64,000 nucleotides of DNA. Origin: a virus. Location: positions 12,983 through 76,982 of the IMG/VR virus record IMGVR_UViG_3300034272_001354, one strand, 5' to 3'. The position numbers and the translations under genes are program-made. Each line of letters opens with the position of its first letter. Position 1 is the stretch's first letter. Shown here piece by piece: positions 4,555-64,000 of the stretch. The notes under the pieces were generated by a model. The model had not been told where the DNA came from. It made no database searches and saw only the letters and a list, made by a program, of their open reading frames with translations.

Positions 4555-5277
4555 ATGGAAATAAATAATGTAAATGTAGGTATTTGTTTAATAATTAAAA
4601 ACGAAACCCAATATTTGGATGAATGGTTAGAACATTATCGTAAATTAGGTGTTGATAAATTTTTTATTTATGATAACAATTCTTCAACACCAATTAAAAT
4701 TGACGATAATGATGTTGAAGTTATTTTATGGGATAATGAGTTATTTGGTTCTCAAAATAACGCATATTTAGATTGTTGTCAAAAAAATCTATCATTTGAT
4801 TTTATAGGATTTTTTGATACTGATGAGTTTTATTTTTCAAAAAGTATGAACATTAAGTCAGACATTAATCATTTTAAATCTTTATATGGTGATTTTGATG
4901 GATTTGCAATCTATTGGAGATTATATGGTAAACAATCTCCTTATTTCACAGAAAGACAATCTATTGAAATGTATACCCAATATTATGAAGATGGTCATAT
5001 AAAAAGTTTATTAACCCCTAAAAAAGTTGTAAGTTTTGGTCAACCCCATTTTGCTAGTTTACTTAACGGTAAATATATTGATGAATTAGGTAGAATTGTT
5101 TTTTCCCCAATAGGAGAACATACTAGTGATTATGTGTGGATAAAACATATTTGGGCTAGAAGTGAAGAAGAATTCAAAGAAAAATTAATAAGAGGTGATG
5201 TTAATTGGAGAAAACAAATAAACACAGATTTTAACGAATTTTACAATTATAATGATAGATGTGTTTTAAATGACTAA
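4555..5277 (+). CDS. glycosyltransferase (GT2/GT92-like)
   Basis: KNETQYLDEWLEHY..LGVDKFFIYDNNS, FFDTDEF; start moved to ATG 4555 after the dut stop. Confidence 0.75.
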   Translation: MEINNVNVGICLIIKNETQYLDEWLEHYRKLGVDKFFIYDNNSSTPIKIDDNDVEVILWDNELFGSQNNAYLDCCQKNLSFDFIGFFDTDEFYFSKSMNIKSDINHFKSLYGDFDGFAIYWRLYGKQSPYFTERQSIEMYTQYYEDGHIKSLLTPKKVVSFGQPHFASLLNGKYIDELGRIVFSPIGEHTSDYVWIKHIWARSEEEFKEKLIRGDVNWRKQINTDFNEFYNYNDRCVLND

Positions 5278-5289
5278 CAGATAAAATTT

Positions 5290-6798
5290 ATGATAACAAT
5301 AATATATTCAACACATAAAGATGAACAATTTAATAACAAATTTAAACAACATTTGTTACAAACTGTTGGTCTAAAAGATGTTCAAATTTTGGAATATAAA
5401 AACAATAATGAATTTAGTTTGAGTGAGATTTATAATAAAGGTATATCTCATTCAAATTTTGATATTGTGGTTTGTTGCCATAATGATATAAAATTAGAAA
5501 ATGGGTGGGGTAAAAAACTTTTAAAAGATTACTCTGATAATCCTGAATATAGTATTATTGGAAAAGCAGGTACATCATATTTTCCTGAATCAGGGGTGTT
5601 TTGGGAAAAAATGCAACAAACTATGGTGGGACAAGTTTACCATCAACCTGATAAAGATAAGTGGTTAAGTAAATATTCCCCAAAATTACCAATAATTGTT
5701 CCCGTAGTTTCAATAGACGGTTTATTTTTATCATTTAATAAGACAAAAATAAAACATACGTTTGATGAAAGTATTGGTAGATTTCACTTTTATGACCATT
5801 TATTTTGTTTACCAAATTATTTAGACGGAGTTAAGATTGGTGTCACATCATCTTTTGAAATTATTCATCAATCAATCGGAAGACCAAATCAGGAGTTTTA
5901 CGAAACCAAAGAAAAATTTGTGGAGAAATGGAAACACGTTTTACCATTAGATTTAAAACCTGAAAAAATTTACATTCCGGAAATAAAAGAAAAACCAATT
6001 AAAAATATTGGTAAAGTAGCCGTTATCATCCCAACCAAAGGAAATATTGAAATGTTGAAAGAATGTGTTGATTCATTTTACATTCATTGTAACTCTGAAT
6101 TATTTGACATTTTCATTGCTGATACCGGTTCAACAGATGACGAAAAAGAAACATTAAAAAGTAATATAAAAGATTATAATAACATAAAATTAATTGAATA
6201 TGATTATTATAATTTTGCAAAAATTAATAATGATGTTGTTAAAAATCACGTAACTGATGAATACGAATTTTTATTATTCTGTAATAATGATATTAAATTA
6301 TTGAATAATGTAATTTATGGAATGTTAAACATTTTTAAAACAACACCTAAAGTTGGTACGATTGGATGTAGATTACATTTTGAAGACAATACCATCCAAC
6401 ATGACGGTGTCATTTGTTTATTTGATAGTAAACAAAATTTATTAATATCTCATCACGGATTAAATAGTTATTACAATTTTTCAAATAATAACAGAAAAAT
6501 ATTAGGTTCTACGGCAGCATTACTTATCATTAAAAAAGAGGTATTTATTAAATGTGGTTATTTTAATGAAAATTACACCACTTGTTTTGAAGATGTTGAA
6601 TTGAATTTAAAGTGTTTAATGTTGGGTTTAGATAACTATTGTAATAGTAATTTAGTTTCTTATCATTATGAAAGTCAAACAAGAAATAACGATGATGAAA
6701 AATCTAAAAAACAATTTAATGATTATAACAATATATTAAAACCATTTGTTATTAACAATTATGATAAGTTAAAAACTCATATACAAATAATAAAATAA
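5290..6798 (+). CDS. two-domain GT-A glycosyltransferase
   Basis: Domain 1 has CCHNDI and FHFYD; domain 2 has VIIPTK, DTGSTD, FCNNDI, FEDVELNL, YHYESQTR. Confidence 0.8.
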   Translation: MITIIYSTHKDEQFNNKFKQHLLQTVGLKDVQILEYKNNNEFSLSEIYNKGISHSNFDIVVCCHNDIKLENGWGKKLLKDYSDNPEYSIIGKAGTSYFPESGVFWEKMQQTMVGQVYHQPDKDKWLSKYSPKLPIIVPVVSIDGLFLSFNKTKIKHTFDESIGRFHFYDHLFCLPNYLDGVKIGVTSSFEIIHQSIGRPNQEFYETKEKFVEKWKHVLPLDLKPEKIYIPEIKEKPIKNIGKVAVIIPTKGNIEMLKECVDSFYIHCNSELFDIFIADTGSTDDEKETLKSNIKDYNNIKLIEYDYYNFAKINNDVVKNHVTDEYEFLLFCNNDIKLLNNVIYGMLNIFKTTPKVGTIGCRLHFEDNTIQHDGVICLFDSKQNLLISHHGLNSYYNFSNNNRKILGSTAALLIIKKEVFIKCGYFNENYTTCFEDVELNLKCLMLGLDNYCNSNLVSYHYESQTRNNDDEKSKKQFNDYNNILKPFVINNYDKLKTHIQIIK

Positions 6799-8921: not shown

Positions 8922-9623
8922 ATGTTTGATTACATTGTTTGTTTTTATTTTGGAGAAAGAAGAGTTAGAACAACCAATTCATTATTATTATCTGATAGAT
9001 ATTTTTTTGTTAAAAAACATTTAGATTTTATAAAAAATAATGAAACAGTTTTAAACGACATTAATAACGTAATTTTAGTTATTAATAATTCAAATGATGA
9101 CGATTTAAAATCCGTTACAAATATTAAAAATGAATATCCCTTCTCAGATAAAATTATTATCATAGGAAGGGATAATTCAAATTATTCTTATGGTGGGTGG
9201 AATGAATCATTAATTCATCAAATAAATTTAAATACCCCATCGTTACACGCATTTCTTTGTGAAGATGATTACATACCTTGTAATGATAATTTTCATAAAA
9301 AATTTATAGAATTTTTTAATTCCGATGTTATATATGTTTGTCAATTATTTATGAATAATCATGCGGCAATTTCAAATGGTTTCATAACTTATAACATAAT
9401 AAAAGATTATTATAATAATACCAAAGAATTATTTGTGCTCACTAATAGTTATGATTATAGAAGTGCCGAAATTAACCAAGTTAACTTTTTAAATAATTTT
9501 AAAAATTTAAAGTGTGTTGACATCAGTGAAAAATATTGTTCAAAATTTTTAGATTTCAATAATAGTATTGTTGTTTATGGGAATAAAACCGGTGAAGAAT
9601 TAATAAAACCAATTTTAGAATAA
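8922..9623 (+). CDS. GT-A fold glycosyltransferase-like protein
   Basis: RDNSNYSYGGW and FLCEDDY motifs. Confidence 0.5.
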   Translation: MFDYIVCFYFGERRVRTTNSLLLSDRYFFVKKHLDFIKNNETVLNDINNVILVINNSNDDDLKSVTNIKNEYPFSDKIIIIGRDNSNYSYGGWNESLIHQINLNTPSLHAFLCEDDYIPCNDNFHKKFIEFFNSDVIYVCQLFMNNHAAISNGFITYNIIKDYYNNTKELFVLTNSYDYRSAEINQVNFLNNFKNLKCVDISEKYCSKFLDFNNSIVVYGNKTGEELIKPILE

Positions 9624-12417: not shown

Positions 12418-13020
12418 ATGAGAATTGGTATAGAAATTAATGGAGTGTTAAGAGATACTTTAGGAAAAATTGAACAAACTTATCAGAAATTTTTAATCGA
12501 TAAAACTGATGGTATTGAAGACGACGAGTCATTTGAATATAAAATGACCTACCCGATAAATAGTTTAACATTAAACGACCATTTTTCATTTCCGGATGAT
12601 GATGAATTATATTCATTTTTATATGAAGAATTTGCTATGGAAATTTTTGGTCACGCACAATCCTCAGAATATAATACATTTATTGATTTAAACGAAATTT
12701 ATATATCTTTAAGAGATAATCACGATTTATTAATTGTTTCGGATGAAATAGGAAAATCAAAACCCGCATCATTATTCTTTTTATCAAAATTTGGATGTCA
12801 ATTAGAAAAAGTAAAATTTTATAGTAATTCAACAATTAATTCAATGTGGGATGAATTAGATATTTTACTTACATCCAATCCAGCCTTATTATTGGATTAT
12901 CCGTCAGATAAAATATTAATAAAATATGAAACGGATTATAATGAGAATATTACCACAATCCATTCTATAAAATCTATAAAAGAATTGGATGATAAATTAA
13001 AACAAATTTTAGAATGTTAA
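12418..13020 (+). CDS. HAD-fold 5'-nucleotidase-like protein, catalytic motif altered
   Basis: MRIGIEINGVLRD resembles the NT5C IxIDxDGVL motif, with E/N in place of D/D. Confidence 0.5.
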   Translation: MRIGIEINGVLRDTLGKIEQTYQKFLIDKTDGIEDDESFEYKMTYPINSLTLNDHFSFPDDDELYSFLYEEFAMEIFGHAQSSEYNTFIDLNEIYISLRDNHDLLIVSDEIGKSKPASLFFLSKFGCQLEKVKFYSNSTINSMWDELDILLTSNPALLLDYPSDKILIKYETDYNENITTIHSIKSIKELDDKLKQILEC

Positions 13021-48016: not shown

Positions 48017-48071
48017 TGATATTTATTTTAATAATAAATATAATTTTATTTGGATTTATCCAAAAATGTAT

Positions 48072-57978: not shown

Positions 57979-58081
57979 ACTTTATATATTTTTTTACAAA
58001 GATAGTCAAATTTTTAATATAAAAAAATCCATCACGAAAAAATGATGGATTTAATTTGAAACCTTGTTATTTGTTTATTTT

Positions 58082-58954
58082 TTAGAATTTGTTCCCACAA
58101 GAAGAACAAAATTTATCGGAATCCTTTTTTCTTTTTTTTCCACAGTTAGTACAATACACTTTTAAGTCTTGTTTTTCATATACCTTTTGTGACATAGGTA
58201 GAATCTTCCATACAGAACTTGCACAAGTGTGATGATTAAAAGTTTTATTCACTGTTTGAAATGATTGGTCAGATGAACCCCCCTTTTCAACTCTACCGGT
58301 TTCAATAGAGTCCATAGATAACATATCCATAGTAACCTCACTACGAGAATTAGGTTTAGATTTTTTTAATCTTGAAGTCGCACTTCTTAAGTTTGGTCCT
58401 GCAAAGGTATTACTTATTGAAGTAGTATTAAAATTAACTCCCGCAGTATTACTTGATGATGTAAATGATACATTACCATTTGTGGTTGTTGTAATACCAT
58501 TTACATAATTTGTGTTAGTAGTAAATGACGGATTCCCTGAAACATAATTTGGGCCCCCAAATGAACCACCATAATACGTTATTGGGTTATTCCACACCGG
58601 TTGTTTATATTCATCAAAGAAGTCAATAACAACATCCCCATTTCCGGCGATGGCGTCCAATACCTCGTTTGATGTTCCGTCAACCTCATAAGTTTCAAAC
58701 TTAAACTTACGAGCTTCATTAAGATATCTCTCAAGATATACACGTTGTCCTGGTTTAAGTACAATTCCTCCTCCGGCAATATAATTTCCGTCAAGTTTTA
58801 TTTTTGCTAATATTGTGTTTGATGTTGGGTTAAATAATTCTAGTTCGAATTCATCCCCATTTTTAAGATAGACAGTTTGTCCAAATTGTTTAAGACGTTT
58901 TTTGTCTTTTGTGATGTACGCACAAGGCATACCTGTTTTTGTTTGGTAATACAT
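58082..58954 (-). CDS. hypothetical protein with C-terminal zinc ribbon
   Basis: CTNCG...FCSSCG. Confidence 0.7.
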   Translation of the reverse strand: MYYQTKTGMPCAYITKDKKRLKQFGQTVYLKNGDEFELELFNPTSNTILAKIKLDGNYIAGGGIVLKPGQRVYLERYLNEARKFKFETYEVDGTSNEVLDAIAGNGDVVIDFFDEYKQPVWNNPITYYGGSFGGPNYVSGNPSFTTNTNYVNGITTTTNGNVSFTSSSNTAGVNFNTTSISNTFAGPNLRSATSRLKKSKPNSRSEVTMDMLSMDSIETGRVEKGGSSDQSFQTVNKTFNHHTCASSVWKILPMSQKVYEKQDLKVYCTNCGKKRKKDSDKFCSSCGNKF

Positions 58955-59126
58955 AATTTCCTTATTTTATTTTTTATGTTTATTGAACTTCTCTTCGTTG
59001 GTATCAATTCCAACTCAAATGCCTCTGTGGACACGAGAACCTCAGCAACAAGGTTTCATTAATAAATATAAGGATGATTTGTTTTGTTGTAAATAAAAAA
59101 CCCCCAAGTTTCCTTGAAGGTTGTTG

Positions 59127-59201
59127 TGGCCCCTACAGGATTTGAACCTGTGACCTTCTCGTTATGAGCGAGCTACTCTTACCGGACTGAGTTAAGAGGC
59201 C
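59127..59201 (-). tRNA. tRNA-CAT (probably Ile2, alternatively Met)
   Basis: Cloverleaf GGCCTCT/AGGGGCC, anticodon loop CTCATAA. Confidence 0.85.
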
Positions 59202-59240
59202 AATTATGGGTTTTTAGTGTACCCATAAACACTTGAATAA

Positions 59241-59471
59241 CTATTGGTGGTGTTTCACATACCTACCAAATTTATCAACCCTCACAGAGAGTTTCTCCAA
59301 TCTAAAGTTCCATTGTTTGAACTTTCCTAAGCCCGATTTCATTCGTGCTTGTTTAATTGCAGATTCCTCTGCCTTCTCACGTCCCTCTTCCGTAGTTTCT
59401 ACGAAAAAAGTGGGAGCCTGAACACCGTTATAAACGGGAACTACTCTCCAAATTCTCAATTTCTGAGTCAT
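59241..59471 (-). CDS. hypothetical protein
   Basis: 76-aa ORF within the tRNA array. Confidence 0.6.
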   Translation of the reverse strand: MTQKLRIWRVVPVYNGVQAPTFFVETTEEGREKAEESAIKQARMKSGLGKFKQWNFRLEKLSVRVDKFGRYVKHHQ

Positions 59472-59537
59472 AATCTTAGCTAACTGCTAAAACTATGTGG
59501 AGTTTGGTTGTTGGTTTTTCATATTAGTAAATATTAG

Positions 59538-59610
59538 TATCCCCGACAGGAGTCGAACCTGCAGCTTACAAGGCTTAAACTTGTTGTGTTTACCGTTTCA
59601 CCACGAGGAT
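59538..59610 (-). tRNA. tRNA-Leu(TAA), short variable loop
   Basis: ATCCTCG/CGGGGAT, loop TTTAAGC, variable AAGCT. Confidence 0.8.
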
Positions 59611-59827
59611 GTGTTTCCACCAATGAGATTATTTTGGTGTAGATGTCCACAGTTTTCCTATTCAAAACCCATCGCGTCTTACCGCTTAAAAGTCAACAAC
59701 TACTCGGAGGGAATGTTGTCAGTTCCCTTTATTCCGACAGACCCCCTCTGTAAAACCGTTTGAGGCGTCAGCTACATCATTGTTTAAGAAACGATGCCAA
59801 ATCTATTGAGTATCTCTCACTCAATTG

Positions 59828-59907
59828 TAGTCAGGACAGGACTCGAACCTGTAATTCCGGTTAAACCCCTCGACGGGGCCGCGTCTATCCAATTCCGCCA
59901 CCCGACT
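59828..59907 (-). ncRNA. tRNA-like RNA with Leu-type D arm and aberrant anticodon loop
   Basis: AGTCGGG/CCTGACT; GCGGAATTGGATAGACGC; CCCC-GTCGA-GGGG; intact T arm. Confidence 0.6.
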
Positions 59908-60132
59908 ATATAGGACACGGGTTCGGTTTCCCCATATGTGTCCATACTTTTAGTAGTTGTGTTATTTTAAGAGAAATAACCCGGTGCCCACCGAAGAACC
60001 CGTATTTTTTGTCCGCACAAAAATTTGTAAAAAGGCCGTATTATCGTTTGGTCTATTTCAACCGTCCGAGTTCTACATTTTACATCCAAGAACCCATACC
60101 CTCATACGGAGAGAACGAAAGTGGATGACCTG

Positions 60133-60215
60133 AGCTGGTGATTGGATTCGAACCAACGTGACCTTTCGGTTCCTGATTACAAATCAGGTGCAATCAACCT
60201 CTATGCGACACCAGC
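60133..60215 (-). tRNA. tRNA-Thr(TGT), long variable arm
   Basis: GCTGGTG/CACCAGC, loop TTTGTAA, variable arm ACC-GAAA-GGT. Confidence 0.8.
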
Positions 60216-60267
60216 CTGTCGCAGAGTATTTTTTTTAAGTAGAAGTCAACTCTGTCTCTTAAACTAC

Positions 60268-60421
60268 TGATAACCAACAGGACTCGAACCTGTAAGGATA
60301 TAACACTTCTTGCTGTGTTTTCTCCGGCAGTTTCCGTCCGTGAGCAAGAGATTGAGAAGTTCACTCTCAACCAATCATATTGGACTAGACCCCCGTGTAT
60401 ACCAATTCCACCACAGTTATC
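60268..60421 (-). ncRNA. giant tRNA-like RNA (about 100-nt insertion)
   Basis: GATAACTG/TGGTTATC acceptor, GTGGAATTGGTATACAC D arm, ACAGG-TTCGAGT-CCTGT T arm. Confidence 0.6.
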
Positions 60422-60525
60422 ATTTTTTAACATCATCACTTCGGCCACATTGGGAGAACCGCAGTTCCCACGTTGTTTAAGGAGGTAGTTGGCGGTGTAT
60501 CACACCGAGTTATGATAATGTATTG

Positions 60526-60598
60526 TACTCAAGGAGGGATTCGAACCCTCAAAACCTTGTTCCTAAGACAAGTGTGTATACCGTTCCACCACTAGAGC
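60526..60598 (-). tRNA. tRNA-Leu(TAG), short variable loop
   Basis: Loop CTTAGGA, variable GTTTT. Confidence 0.8.
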
Positions 60599-60606
60599 AA
60601 TTGTTG

Positions 60607-60678
60607 TACCCTCAATAGGACTCGAACCTATATCAAAACATTAGAAGTGTCTTATTCTATCCCTTGAACTATGAAGGC
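60607..60678 (-). tRNA. tRNA-Arg(TCT)
   Basis: GCCTTCA/TGAGGGT, loop CTTCTAA. Confidence 0.88.
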
Positions 60679-60685
60679 AATTTTG

Positions 60686-60757
60686 AGCGAATAGAGAGAA
60701 TCGAACTCTCGTCTCCAACTTGGAAGGATGGAGTAATAACCACTATACGATATTCGC
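60686..60757 (-). tRNA. tRNA-Gly(TCC)
   Basis: GCGAATA/TATTCGC, U73, loop CTTCCAA. Confidence 0.88.
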
Positions 60758-60839
60758 AGATTTGGGTAGAATCAGACGCGTTCTGTCTACCGGGACCTCG
60801 TCGTTAACTTTCGTCAGAGCGTACCGAGACACTTTTTCA

Positions 60840-61010
60840 TTATCTAGATTGGAGAATCCCCATCTCTTTTTCGATTCTTTTCTTGTCAGAATCTGTTAAT
60901 GGAACTTTTACGTCCCTTGTACCCTTTTGTGTTTTCACACCACTTTTCAATTGGTTCTGTAACATATCAAGTGCTCTTGATTGTCTTGACCTTTTTGCTG
61001 CTGTAGCCAT
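60840..61010 (-). CDS. 56-aa basic protein (absent from ORF track)
   Basis: MATAAKRSRQSRALDMLQNQLKSGVKTQKGTRDVKVPLTDSDKKRIEKEMGILQSR. Confidence 0.55.
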   Translation of the reverse strand: MATAAKRSRQSRALDMLQNQLKSGVKTQKGTRDVKVPLTDSDKKRIEKEMGILQSR

Positions 61011-61032
61011 ACGGATTTAGTTATTAAATTAG

Positions 61033-61105
61033 TAGCGTAGGGCAGGTAACGCTCCTGCTTTGATTGGCTTATGAGACCAATGAGATACTATACCTCCCCC
61101 TCGCG
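61033..61105 (-). tRNA. divergent tRNA-Met(CAT), initiator-like 5' end
   Basis: 5' CGCG with unpaired C1, loop CTCATAA; atypical T loop AGCGTTA; lacks three G-C pairs in the anticodon stem. Confidence 0.55.
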
Positions 61106-61111
61106 ATGTTG

Positions 61112-61224
61112 CTGATTAATAAGGACTCGAACCTTAATCCTGAGTCCCCTTTCAGAACCGACGAAAGCCCAATGCTTTTCGTATTCCTACTCCGTTCCTC
61201 TGTGCACCATTACACCATAATCAA
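61112..61224 (-). ncRNA. tRNA-like RNA with long insertion
   Basis: TGATTA/TAATCA acceptor, GTGT-AATGGT-GCAC D arm, TAAGG-TTCGAGT-CCTTA T arm, no canonical anticodon arm. Confidence 0.55.
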
Positions 61225-61273
61225 TCGTCAGTTTCGAACCTGACAGTCATAGGGTAATTAATCCTATGGTTTG

Positions 61274-61345
61274 CGGTCTATGAGAGAATCGAACTCTCAT
61301 CTCTACCGTGACAGGGTAGCATCCTAGCCGTTGAACGAATAGACC
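61274..61345 (-). tRNA. tRNA-Asp(GTC)
   Basis: GGTCTAT/ATAGACC, G73, loop CTGTCAC. Confidence 0.9.
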
Positions 61346-61349
61346 TTTG

Positions 61350-61421
61350 TGGAGATATAGGGAATCGAACCCTAATTTACGATTTGCAAAACCATTGTAA
61401 TAGCCGTTATACTATATCCCC
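61350..61421 (-). tRNA. tRNA-Ala(TGC)
   Basis: G3.U70 pair, loop TTTGCAA. Confidence 0.88.
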
Positions 61422-61426
61422 AATTG

Positions 61427-61498
61427 TAGCCCCACCGGGAGTCGAACCCGACTTTTTTGGATGAAAACCAAATGTCCTAACCGATAGACGATAGGGCC
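61427..61498 (-). tRNA. tRNA-Glu(TTC)
   Basis: GGCCCTA/TGGGGCT, loop TTTTCAT. Confidence 0.88.
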
Positions 61499-61545
61499 GT
61501 TTTATATTACCAATATTTCAATTAACTTGTTTCTTTTTGATGGTA

Positions 61546-61553
61546 CAAAGATA
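61546..61553 (-). promoter_or_regulatory. Bacteroidota sigma70 -7 element for the tRNA array
   Basis: TATCTTTG on the minus strand with upstream TTTG. Confidence 0.7.
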
Positions 61554-61585
61554 ATACTTTATTTCATTATACCAAACTTTTTTAT

Positions 61586-61615
61586 AAAAAAAAATCCATC
61601 TCTTTTGGAGATGGA
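61586..61615 (-). terminator. intrinsic terminator, candidate attenuator
   Basis: TCCATCTC-CAAAA-GAGATGGA followed by nine T. Confidence 0.8.
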
Positions 61616-61650
61616 CTTAATCTATTATTATTATGTTACTTAACAATACA

Positions 61651-61725
61651 TCATACCATCTCCGACCGAGTTGTATCTCTACCCTCCGCGCCTATTGTAA
61701 GTAATAATGTATTTAAAGTTTGCAT
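61651..61725 (-). CDS. candidate 24-aa leader peptide
   Basis: MQTLNTLLLTIGAEGRDTTRSEMV; TATTTATT motif at 61748-61755 upstream; 3' end complementary to the terminator 5' arm. Confidence 0.5.
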   Translation of the reverse strand: MQTLNTLLLTIGAEGRDTTRSEMV

Positions 61726-61782
61726 TTTCTGTGTTATTGTAATTTCTAATAAATATAGTCCTTTTTTAAAAAGTGTCAAGTA

Positions 61783-62100
61783 TTAATTATTTTTTTTTAT
61801 AATTTCTCCCATAACCGCTGGAATATATTGTTTGTATAACTTAATTTGTTTTAATTTAAGTTCAATCATTTCCTTAATATTGTCTGATAATTTTTTAATT
61901 TTATCATACTCATCCGGAGTTAATAAAAACACTTCTTTTGGTTTTGTATTATATGTCTTCCCTTTAATTGGTCCTGTTAATTCAACAATATCAGTATTTT
62001 CATCATAATAATATGGTGTTAATCCCTGAGATTTAATTTTTGATAAAGTTATTGGTGTGATATCCACATCCAACATTCTTCTATCTATTGTATTTTTCAT
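61783..62100 (-). CDS. hypothetical protein
   Basis: 105-aa ORF. Confidence 0.65.
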   Translation of the reverse strand: MKNTIDRRMLDVDITPITLSKIKSQGLTPYYYDENTDIVELTGPIKGKTYNTKPKEVFLLTPDEYDKIKKLSDNIKEMIELKLKQIKLYKQYIPAVMGEIIKKNN

Positions 62101-62123
62101 ATTGGTAAGATTTATTATTAAAA

Positions 62124-62319
62124 AAAGTTTAACAACCCCGCCCTCGGGTCGTAGCGGGCTACAATGGGAATTCCGGAATTGGTCGTGTTCCTCACCGGCG
62201 TACCAGTCCTTATCTATCCTTTACCGTATTACTACGGTGCTACTGTTGGGAGGTCACCCCTATCAACACGACTAGTCCATTAGTTTTTTAGAGTATGGAC
62301 ACCCCGGTTGTTAAACTTT
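62124..62319 (-). ncRNA. unidentified structured RNA closed by a 14-bp terminal stem
   Basis: AAAGTTTAACAACC/GGTTGTTAAACTTT with nested GTCGTGTT/AACACGAC and ACCGTA/TACGGT helices; GC-rich; strand inferred from operon. Confidence 0.5.
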
Positions 62320-62390
62320 TCAATTCTTCAGGAGAGACCCTCGAGGGATAACCATAACGGAATTACCCTTGACTCACTCTCCGTCTTCTG

Positions 62391-62461
62391 CGCAGACCGT
62401 AGGAATCGAACCTACCCGTAACAGTTTTGGAGACTGTACCGACACCTTGTCTGTGACCTGC
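62391..62461 (-). tRNA. tRNA-Trp(CCA)
   Basis: GCAGGTC/GGTCTGC, G73, loop CTCCAAA. Confidence 0.8.
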
Positions 62462-62533
62462 ATTTTCAATAAACACCCGACCTGACCTGCCAGATAGTAC
62501 GTGTCGTAGCGCTTTCGTTACGTAGCGGGTGTT

Positions 62534-62677
62534 TTATTTATTATATTCAACCATCAGTTCGTTAATATAACCAATCGACTTTGTTTCAAGATTTAAACAC
62601 ATCCCATCACCAATTAGTTTCCAATTGTTAGCGTATAACCAATTTGTAAATCCCAAAATTTCTTTTTCTAATGACAT
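62534..62677 (-). CDS. 47-aa hypothetical protein (absent from ORF track)
   Basis: MSLEKEILGFTNWLYANNWKLIGDGMC...; TATCTTTG promoter at 62700-62707. Confidence 0.5.
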   Translation of the reverse strand: MSLEKEILGFTNWLYANNWKLIGDGMCLNLETKSIGYINELMVEYNK

Positions 62678-62734
62678 AGTTTCTCCGTTTTTATTTCAAC
62701 AAAGATACAACTATTTTTTATTCTGCCAAAATTT

Positions 62735-63241
62735 TTAGAAAAATAAATAATCATTCCATTCTTCAGGAATATAATGAACTTGTTTTATCATCATCAAATA
62801 ATGTGGTCGTCTTGGTTGAGGTATTTCTTTACCATATTCTTCCAATGTCAAGTTTGATTTCTCACTATTACATCTTTTACAAGCAGTTACCAAGTTGTCC
62901 CACGCATCTTTACCTCCCTTAGATTGGGGTATTACGTGGTCTAATGTTAAAGTTTTACGATTGTCACATCCACAATATACACAGGCATAACCATCTCTTC
63001 TATAAACATTCTCCCTACTTAAAGGAACTTTATGAATCGGTTGATTCACATATTTGTAAACCCTAATAATTGAGGGTTTTTTGATATCCAATTCAGGATT
63101 AATCAAACTGAATGATTCCGGATGTTCGGCAATAACACTTGCATTACCCTTATAAGTTATGACAAAAGCCCTTTCAGTGTTTATGATAGACCTTGGCATA
63201 TAACTTGAATCCAAAACCAATGTTTTTCCGTACTTACTCAT
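62735..63241 (-). CDS. HNH endonuclease
   Basis: RDGYACVYCG, TLDHVIPQSKGG, NLVTACKRCN..K. Confidence 0.88.
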   Translation of the reverse strand: MSKYGKTLVLDSSYMPRSIINTERAFVITYKGNASVIAEHPESFSLINPELDIKKPSIIRVYKYVNQPIHKVPLSRENVYRRDGYACVYCGCDNRKTLTLDHVIPQSKGGKDAWDNLVTACKRCNSEKSNLTLEEYGKEIPQPRRPHYLMMIKQVHYIPEEWNDYLFF

Positions 63242-63473
63242 TATTTCTATATGTTTCTATTGGTTCTTTTAGTGGAAATTCCGGATTATCTATTAACCCT
63301 AAAAATTCACACTTTCTTCTTTTTCCTTCAACATCACTAAATCTCCAATCTGTTGTCATATCTACGTTGGATAAATCTCCCATATAAAGAAAAGTTTGTT
63401 TTCTCCACATTGATTCTTTTTTTACTTCACTAAAATATTCAGCACTAAATACTGACCAAGTAACACTACTCAC
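63234..63473 (-). CDS. hypothetical protein
   Basis: 79-aa ORF coupled to the HNH gene. Confidence 0.5.
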   Translation of the reverse strand: MSSVTWSVFSAEYFSEVKKESMWRKQTFLYMGDLSNVDMTTDWRFSDVEGKRRKCEFLGLIDNPEFPLKEPIETYRNNE

Positions 63474-63506
63474 AACTTTTGATTTATTAGTTAAACATTC
63501 TTTTTG

Positions 63507-63578
63507 TTCCCCCGTCAGGAGTTGAACCTGACCCCACTGGTTAAAAGCCAGTTGCCTACACCGGTTTGCTACGGGGGA
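63507..63578 (-). tRNA. tRNA-Lys(TTT)
   Basis: TCCCCCG/CGGGGGA, loop CTTTTAA. Confidence 0.85.
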
Positions 63579-63661
63579 TTATTGAGCTCATTTTACTTTA
63601 ACATTGGGCTCAAATTATACATAATTTGAACTTAATAATCAAAGTTTGTGAGCCACATTTG

Positions 63662-63735
63662 TCGGTACTATAGGAATCGAACCTATAACCTCTCACGTAT
63701 CAGGCGAGTGCTCTAACCAATTGAGCTAAGTACCG
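63662..63735 (-). tRNA. tRNA-Ile(GAT)
   Basis: CGGTACT/AGTACCG, loop CTGATAC. Confidence 0.9.
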
Positions 63736-63740
63736 GGTCG

Positions 63741-63815
63741 TCTAGATGGCAAGATTTGAACTTGCGGTCTCCGTCTTCCAAGGACGGCGAGGACTCCGGG
63801 CTCCTCTACATCTAG
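63741..63815 (-). tRNA. tRNA-Pro(TGG)
   Basis: CTAGATG/CATCTAG, loop CTTGGAA. Confidence 0.85.
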
Positions 63816-63831
63816 TGTTATTATTTTTCTG

Positions 63832-63917
63832 CGGAGAGCAGAATACTCGAAATCCATCCCTTTTACAGAACCACTCTCTTAGCAGGAGGTGACAATACCC
63901 TGATTGTTTTACTCTCC
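63832..63917 (-). tRNA. tRNA-Ser(GCT), divergent
   Basis: GGAGAGT/GCTCTCC, G73, loop CTGCTAA, long variable arm, imperfect T arm. Confidence 0.7.
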
Positions 63918-64000
63918 ATTTTGTAGGATATCGCTTAACCTACGATGTTGATATCATTACACACCTTCGATATTACTATCAGCGATTTTTTTGTGTCCCC

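Follow-up and report, generated by a model that had tools for sequence, protein, structure and literature searches.

Multivalent leader-peptide attenuators are known from the Escherichia coli ilvGMEDA and thr operons, and the trp and his operons provide the single-amino-acid cases. In the T-box leaders of Gram-positive bacteria, the RNA binds uncharged tRNA directly, without translation, and the controlled genes are those of synthetases and of amino acid metabolism. The purpose and use of phage tRNA genes have been debated for decades. These themes meet in the element analyzed here, a unit made of a promoter, a small open reading frame (ORF) and a terminator that precedes a block of tRNA genes on the minus strand of a viral DNA stretch, namely positions 12,983 to 76,982 of IMG/VR record IMGVR_UViG_3300034272_001354. 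This whole stretch of 64,000 nucleotides (nt), referred to below as the window, is the final 64 kb of a 77-kb fragment that is ~26% complete, and its coordinates are used throughout. On comparative grounds, the unit is interpreted as a multivalent, ribosome-mediated transcription attenuator whose effect would be additive to that of a second promoter, P2, located behind the terminator; the probability assigned to this reading is about 0.65.

Like the ilv and thr leaders, the phage unit combines a short leader ORF, with codons for several amino acids, and a terminator whose 5′ arm can pair alternatively with a segment that would be covered by the ribosome, so that a stall would result in read-through. 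It differs from them in that it would regulate tRNAs and not biosynthetic enzymes, in that the phage leaders contain one or a few codons for each of 8–13 amino acids and not runs of a single one, in the lack of a clear 1:2 hairpin by which termination of untranslated RNA would be enforced, in the presence of a separate promoter behind the terminator, and in being phage-borne. What it would have in common with T-box leaders is a transcription attenuation that reports the state of specific tRNAs; the T-box riboswitch model itself gave no match in the leader unit in a cmscan search of positions 58000–64000.

Leader-peptide attenuation has been inferred for amino acid operons of Flavobacterium psychrophilum, in a report that also gives the Bacteroidota promoter consensus TAnnTTTG (PMC9723704). 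As far as the accessible sections of that report go, these operons share with the phage unit the probable host phylum, the promoter grammar and the proposed mechanism, whereas they are chromosomal and contain amino acid biosynthesis genes, tRNA genes being unmentioned in those sections. Since attenuation has been inferred in Flavobacterium, the host phylum plausibly supports such a mechanism; for the present phage, a Bacteroidota host is suggested by the promoter grammar. Among published cases, the closest is the trn operon (L-array) of Anabaena sp. PCC 7120, which is induced when translation is impaired (PMC8421152) and is under the TrcR repressor (PMC10272220). There, as would be the case for the phage array, supernumerary tRNAs are switched on under translational stress, and RNA-repair genes lie near the Anabaena array. 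However, that operon is cellular, its control relies on promoter repeats and on a repressor and involves neither leader nor terminator, and leader peptides, attenuation and terminators are never mentioned in PMC8421152. Phage tRNA arrays have also been presented as a counter-defence against tRNA-cleaving immunity (PMC10264068 and PMC11555353). In the accessible parts of these studies, a likely reason to sense a shortage can be recognized, as nucleases deplete tRNAs and phage tRNAs replace them, but the subject treated there is tRNA function and not the control of transcription. No paper was found that describes leader-peptide attenuation for tRNA genes. A preliminary description of the window, made from its letters alone, had proposed an attenuator at this locus and had not recognized such a device as described.

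Organization of the leader unit

The unit, named cassette A, begins with the leader promoter P1 (61752–61780), which contains TTGACA-N16-TATATT at 61779–61752. The leader ORF (61651–61725) starts at ATG 61725, comprises 24 codons and ends with TGA (61653–61651), so that the encoded peptide is MQTLNTLLLTIGAEGRDTTRSEMV. Toward its end lies the anti-terminator segment GGAGATGG (61656–61663), which extends from the last base of codon 21 to the first base of codon 24, stops 2 nt before the stop codon and is a perfect 8-bp complement of CCATCTCC (61614–61607) in the terminator 5′ arm. An A/U-rich linker of 35 nt leads to the strong intrinsic terminator (61586–61615), formed by TCCATCTC (61615–61608), the loop CAAAA (61607–61603), GAGATGGA (61602–61595) and T9 (61594–61586). 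P2 (61546–61576), of the Bacteroidota sigma-A-type consensus TTTG-N19-TATCTTTG, is found 10 nt behind the T-run, and a conserved spacer (61499–61545) separates it from the first tRNA gene. The tRNA block (59126–61498), delineated with ARAGORN and Rfam, encodes Glu, Ala, Asp, Gly, Arg(tct), Leu(tag), Thr, Arg(tcg), Leu(taa) and Met tRNAs.

The preliminary description had located TATTTATT, the 24-codon ORF, GGAGATGG, CCATCTCC and the terminator on the minus strand, and had reported a perfect complementarity between GGAGATGG and the terminator 5′ arm that makes the two pairings mutually exclusive. All these features were found again at the same positions, including the mutual exclusion of the terminator and anti-terminator pairings. 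Relatives come from lake metagenomes, with contigs of up to 322 kb; the alignment of cassette A includes 19 distinct copies and that of cassette B, introduced below, 14.

Leader composition and tRNA blocks

In relatives with long flanks, the tRNA region consists of two blocks, each headed by a promoter/mini-ORF/terminator unit. The second unit, cassette B (L044:11531–11891, minus strand), has a consensus sigma-A promoter, an ORF of 40 codons (L044:11682–11804), the terminator TCCTGAACT-CAAAA-AGTTCAGGA-T9 and a P2-like promoter, and it precedes a block with Ser, Gln, Val, Tyr, Asn, His, Arg(acg), Ile, Lys, Cys and Trp tRNAs; the equivalent region of the window's contig falls past its end. Across its copies, leader B has 36–41 codons and is rich in Asn, Lys, His, Ser, Gln, Cys, Tyr, Trp, Pro, Arg and Ile. 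Two further cassettes occur in G001, a more distant relative (61% identity in a neighbouring protein) in which the tRNAs are partitioned differently. Cassette C (L114:5077–5187, in region 5000–5320) occupies the homologous place and stands before Leu, Arg, Pro, Leu, Asn, Tyr, Met, Val, Gly, Gln and Ser tRNAs, and cassette D (L114:197–295, in region 100–440) stands before Ala, Ile, Phe, Lys, Glu, Trp, Arg(acg), Cys, His, Met, Thr, Asp, Ser and Glu tRNAs. The terminator of cassette D ends 5 nt before tRNAAla, which leaves no room for a promoter.

Leader composition was compared with that of random windows taken from the phages' own long ORFs. In leader A, 19 of the 24 residues correspond to tRNAs of its own block and all 8 amino acids of the block are represented (P = 0.004 for the count and 0.0007 for count and coverage together), the 19/24 enrichment having empirical P values of 0.006 and 0.004 in two tests. 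The conserved 30 residues of leader B include 25 own-block residues with a coverage of 12/12 (P = 0.007 for the count). The corresponding values are 30/36 and 10/10 for leader C (P = 1.5e-4) and 28/32 and 13/13 for leader D (P = 0.015), and for each of these three leaders the combined count and coverage gives P < 5e-5. All off-diagonal combinations of leaders and blocks are non-significant, so that each leader fits its own block only. When all phage tRNAs are taken as the reference set, the signal disappears (P = 0.31) and this reference was abandoned; because almost every amino acid has a tRNA encoded in this family, only a block-wise comparison is informative.

The correspondence extends to codons, since strictly cognate codons are present for 8/10 (A), 10/11 (B), 11/11 (C) and 14/14 (D) of the tRNAs. 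For instance, the Arg codon is AGA in leader A, whose block contains tRNAArg(tct), versus CGT in leader B, whose block contains tRNAArg(acg). Furthermore, the leader at the homologous place in G001 differs in composition in a way that matches its different array, which argues for co-variation of leader and block and not for shared ancestry.

Pairing between leader and terminator

The probability of finding by chance a perfect complement of at least 8 nt to the 5′ arm within the upstream 127 nt is 0.8–1.2% for cassette A. The anti-terminator is the minimum-energy fold of the nascent transcript; in the full-length transcript, imposing it carries a penalty of only 2.1 kcal/mol relative to the terminator fold, and by these predicted energies a competition between the two structures is reasonable. 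The full 8-bp pairing is kept in 9 of the 19 distinct copies, and five of its pairs (GATGG:CCATC) are invariant. In the copies of group 2, codon 22 is GAG, CAG, TCG, ACG, GTG or TTG and the arm is constant (CCATCTTC).

When the four cassettes are considered together, the P values for an in-ORF complement to the terminator 5′ arm of the same cassette are 0.014 (A), 0.027 (B), 0.17 (C) and 0.021 (D), with a Fisher combined P of 7e-4. In cassette B, the conservation of the leader ends exactly with the anti-terminator segment AAGTTCAG, and the tail beyond it varies in sequence and length. Two copies of this cassette (L117 and L123) have the arm CTGAACTC changed into CTGAATCT and the ORF segment AAGTTCAG changed into AGATTCAG, which amounts to two adjacent compensatory pairs between the segment and the arm (AU to GC and GC to AU) and one gained pair; the terminator 3′ arm is unchanged alongside. 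None of 500 shuffles attained the covariation of cassette B, and covariation of the anti-terminator pairing is thereby demonstrated in this cassette at the level of aligned sequences. The preliminary description had called for compensatory changes among the three segments. Such changes are borne out for the anti-terminator in sister cassette B and for the terminator in cassette A (see below), but the anti-terminator of cassette A itself receives no such support.

Two other structures seen in cassette A were discarded. A long-range helix (TTACTTA:TAAGTAA) is broken by changes in three copies (L070, L054 and L066) and does not appear in the consensus structure. The minimum-energy fold of the window also contains a strong 1:2-like helix, which is absent from the 19-sequence consensus structure as well and is unsupported as a conserved element. 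A small hairpin with a GAGA loop that spans codons 13–20 of the ORF (61666–61688) does belong to the RNAalifold consensus. It is weak (−3 to −6 kcal/mol), is conserved without overlapping the anti-terminator segment and is kept with a different inner stem in one relative (L008); judged from folding, it is possibly a pause hairpin.

Conservation of the leader and the terminator

Nucleotide diversity (pi) is 0.08–0.33 within an island bounded by the −35 box of P1 and the −7 box of P2, versus 0.4–0.75 in the flanks. Within it, the leader frame is kept in the 19 distinct copies, including across indels, which are in-frame, and neither frameshift nor stop decay of the ORF was found in these copies or in the 14 distinct copies of cassette B. 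Synonymous changes occur at codons 10, 12 and 13 in group 1 and at codons 4, 9, 11 and 18 in group 2. The preservation of the ORF among relatives that the preliminary description had asked for is therefore present and, by its substitution pattern, the leader demonstrably evolves as a coding frame. The terminator helix is supported as well: 99.3% of its cells are paired across relatives, with one compensatory pair (UA in 11, CG in 7), and 0/500 shuffles attain the observed score.

Codons 20–22 (61660–61668) form a hypervariable exception in which all changes are non-synonymous (Arg/Trp/Gly/Glu, Ser/Thr/Lys/Met and Glu/Gln/Ser/Thr/Val/Leu). Their third base is nearly always G, in phages where only 11% of codons end in G, and codon 22 is G-ending in all six of its variants. 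The idea that codons 20–22 follow a variable tRNA slot between tRNAThr and tRNALeu(taa) was rejected, as no tracking was seen among relatives. That slot (59610–60132) contains, depending on the relative, Arg(tcg), Gln(ttg), Pro(tgg), Ser(cga), a SeC-like gene or tRNA-like genes, the latter with 4-nt or odd anticodon loops.

The G/C-ending codons of the second half of the ORF had been singled out in the preliminary description as unusual for this genome. This is borne out in the long ORFs of the window, where CGG accounts for 0.00 of Arg codons, GGC for 0.01 of Gly, TCG for 0.06 of Ser, GCG for 0.19 of Ala and GAG for 0.17 of Glu codons. However, they are specific to the window's lineage and are replaced in relatives (CGG by TGG, GGG or GAG, and GGC by GGT or GGA), so that they do not constitute a conserved signal. 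A link between the rare CGG codon and tRNAArg(tcg) was likewise rejected, with one agreement against three disagreements.

The leader is preceded by a probable 5′ untranslated region (UTR; 61726–61745), where conservation within the unit is highest (pi about 0.09). This A-rich region lacks a Shine–Dalgarno sequence and carries A at −3, −12 and −13, positions at which A is a positive determinant of initiation in Flavobacterium johnsoniae (PMC6847099). The ORF would begin 20–25 nt behind the presumed transcription start of P1. A mini-ORF of four codons (61636–61654, minus strand) overlaps the leader stop (ATGA), and most relatives keep it in the form Met-(Met/Ile/Lys)-Tyr-(Cys/Ser/Ile)-stop; it may be a chance product of A/T-rich sequence.

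Proposed mechanism and alternative explanations

According to the favoured reading, RNA polymerase would start at P1 and make a leader that samples the Glu, Ala, Asp, Gly, Arg, Leu, Thr and Met of the block. With quick decoding, the ribosome would reach the stop codon and mask GGAGATGG, CCATCTCC would be left free, the terminator would form and the P1 transcript would end at T9. With a ribosome held at the codon of a scarce or uncharged tRNA, GGAGATGG would capture the emerging 5′ arm, no terminator would form and transcription would enter the tRNA block. P2 would represent an independent, attenuator-free supply, to which the switch would add a ‘boost on demand’. Host tRNA nucleases, host shut-off or amino acid starvation may be the cause of the shortage. 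Because no hairpin sequesters the anti-terminator segment, untranslated RNA should read through, and the device would for this reason also report a general collapse of translation. Translation of the leader, termination decided by stalling and the relative strengths of P1 and P2 are features that we infer from sequence.

A series of findings weighs against this reading. P2, perfectly conserved, lies behind the terminator in every relative, and expression of the array is thus possible without read-through; with P2 conserved between the terminator and the tRNAs, the switch can only add to array expression and cannot gate all of it. A gate in front of the whole array, as initially proposed, has consequently to be given up, while the leader, the terminator and the in-ORF anti-terminator survive as the best-supported account of the unit thanks to cassettes B–D. 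Between P2 and tRNAGlu, moreover, all relatives except the window's lineage and L089 (group 2) have an acidic ORF of 32–70 amino acids (aa). In cassette A, a complementarity with a ~1% chance of occurrence is suggestive for one locus and weak once many terminators are inspected. The pairing is reduced to 5–6 bp in 10 of the 19 distinct copies without compensation in the arm, its pairs 6 and 7 are broken in 6–7 of the 19 copies, which is no better than in shuffles, and in group 2, except for the GAG copy, the top duplex between ORF and arm is at chance level (P about 0.25–0.3). In cassette C, the anti-terminator is not significant. On the side of composition, the strict codon match of leader A is modest (14/24, P about 0.02) and is non-significant in group 2, and the block limits as well as the choice between two overlapping ORFs in cassette D were fixed after seeing the data. 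Lastly, the codon variants of the leader do not follow the variable part of the array: L040 has CGG without tRNAArg(tcg), L050 and L066 have tRNAArg(tcg) with TGG, and L070 retains the leader beside an array that is reduced according to ARAGORN.

Several of these observations would suit an autonomous micro-gene, in which P1, the ORF and the terminator are self-contained, the product of 24 aa has a trans-acting role (with a host factor as one conceivable target), the tRNAs are transcribed from P2 alone and the complementarity is incidental. Indeed, the peptide is conserved over its full length with synonymous changes, P2 is kept in all copies, half of the distinct copies lose the 8-bp pairing, a single 8-mer match with P of about 0.01 is unremarkable among many terminators, and residues 20–22 vary in the manner expected under diversifying selection. 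On the strength of the pairing loss and of P2, this explanation was the one first favoured, the attenuator then being put at about 15%, and it was dropped after cassettes B–D, the evidence from these sister cassettes having made the attenuator the best-supported reading. It leaves unexplained that each of four leaders matches its own block only, with the complete amino acid set and few other residues, that the leader at the homologous place in G001 changed its composition together with the array, that three of the four leaders complement their own, different terminator arm, and that the anti-terminator segment and the arm of cassette B underwent a compensatory change; in addition, the freely varying tails of leader B are unlike a peptide with a folded function. 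A micro-gene is at present regarded as quite unlikely.

A translation-linked sensor that works without competition between anti-terminator and terminator, or that responds to another input (for example amino acid starvation or global ribosome availability instead of the abundance of tRNAs), or whose translation controls the stability or processing of the transcript or an interference with P2, accommodates a strong mirror of composition combined with an anti-terminator that is weak or absent in group 2 and cassette C. The lack of a 1:2 hairpin on the anti-terminator segment, with default read-through of untranslated RNA, would fit a general sensor of translation capacity, and stalls at such codons report charged tRNA and not tRNA gene dosage. 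The compensatory change in cassette B, the significant in-ORF complements in cassettes A, B and D and the location of the segment 2 nt before the stop in cassette A, as predicted by hairpin competition, make this possibility rather improbable nonetheless. A last explanation takes the terminator-plus-promoter junction as mainly a recombination or insulation module with the small ORF as a passenger, for which the promoter-early stem-loops of T4-type phages serve as a model. The terminator–P2 stretch recurs in the genome, L044 has P2 on both sides of its acidic ORF, and gene insertions and deletions occur right at the edges of the unit. Such a module accounts for the flanks and not for the leader, since reading frame, start context and a block-tracking composition would not all be preserved in four cassettes if the ORF were a passenger; as a full explanation of the unit it is highly implausible. 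The multivalent attenuator additive to P2 is the reading retained in what follows.

Promoters and genomic surroundings

In a scan of 6 kb, P1 is the top sigma-70-type match (11/12). It can alternatively be read as cTTG-N19-TATATTTA, a near-consensus Bacteroidota sigma-A −33/−7 promoter, and TATTTATT (61755–61748), called a late motif in the preliminary description, sits within it and does not represent the conserved signal. P1 is kept in relatives, its −35 box being the start of the conservation island. The exact P1 11-mer TATATTTATTA is found again on the minus strand at 59060–59070 and 48032–48042, one of these sites being behind the terminator that closes the tRNA block and before a 290-aa ORF with a C-terminal zinc ribbon; the TATATTTATTA sites may form a separate promoter class.

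P2, noted initially as an internal promoter at 61546 that might explain all array expression, is real as a motif. TTTG-N19-TATCTTTG (61576–61546) belongs to a group of near-identical promoters in the window, where the pattern occurs 10 times versus 3.0 expected, and the terminator–P2 stretch is itself repeated in the genome. The acidic ORF that follows P2 in relatives carries the motif YSPILG, and its L044 copy (9068–9312, minus orientation) is flanked by two identical copies of P2. By comparison with L001 and L040, the window appears to have lost this ORF through a deletion between AAGAAACAA repeats, with a remnant of it left in the spacer between P2 and the first tRNA gene. L044 has a similar spacer behind its cassette B.

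Small ORFs and tRNA-like genes are interspersed in the tRNA block, whose core tRNA order is shared by relatives and which is closed by a terminator (59099–59122) identified in a terminator scan. Upstream of the unit, a 105-aa ORF (61785–62118) is absent from the relatives in two metatranscriptome assemblies, with the junction at 61784, abutting the P1 −35 box; in other relatives (L006), an additional inserted gene separates this ORF from the unit. Neither the 105-aa ORF nor a 56-aa ORF inside the array had a match in Pfam. Further upstream (62474–62730, minus strand), a P2-type promoter, a 47-codon ORF with two Trp and one Cys codons and a weak terminator-like hairpin lie directly before a tRNA-like gene (62391–62462), a position taken by tRNACys and tRNATrp in relatives. 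Since a 286-aa ORF replaces the 47-codon ORF in L044, the latter is probably not a conserved leader.

The leader unit is present in contigs of RNA libraries. In two metatranscriptome runs, the mean depth of the leader-unit contigs is 35–52 versus 3–10 for contigs of the tRNA leader region, contigs being blind to ends, levels and strand, with DNA carry-over possible; these contigs continue beyond the terminator and reach into the P2 region. No close relative was found in the GenBank phage collection, tRNAGlu alone being matched. Searches for distant copies with the peptide alignment and the acidic ORF returned the same ~30 IMG/VR contigs, plus one extra from the peptide search. Rfam cmscan of 58000–64000 with E values up to 1 yielded tRNA-type matches and weak Plastid-ycf2 matches only (on the opposite strand, at three tRNA genes), with nothing within 61500–61800 and no cis-regulatory family in the leader unit.

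Significance for phage tRNA biology

If the attenuator reading is right, the unit would be a feedback sensor of decoding capacity and the first described device that couples the transcription of tRNA genes to decoding performance. It would provide leader-peptide attenuation with a new class of substrate and extend classical attenuation from the supply of amino acids to that of tRNAs. The odds tilt slightly toward a broader arrangement, in which large phages of Bacteroidota would divide up their tRNA genes and place in front of every block a ‘test message’ sampling precisely the tRNAs that this block encodes. With the same slight leaning, such a phage would gauge block by block which tRNAs run short, for instance when host anticodon nucleases have attacked them, and then boost only the genes concerned. 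The arrangement has a searchable signature, made of a promoter, a block-matched mini-ORF, a terminator and an in-ORF copy of the terminator 3′ arm, and this signature would make it possible to predict which of its tRNAs a phage uses together as a functional set.

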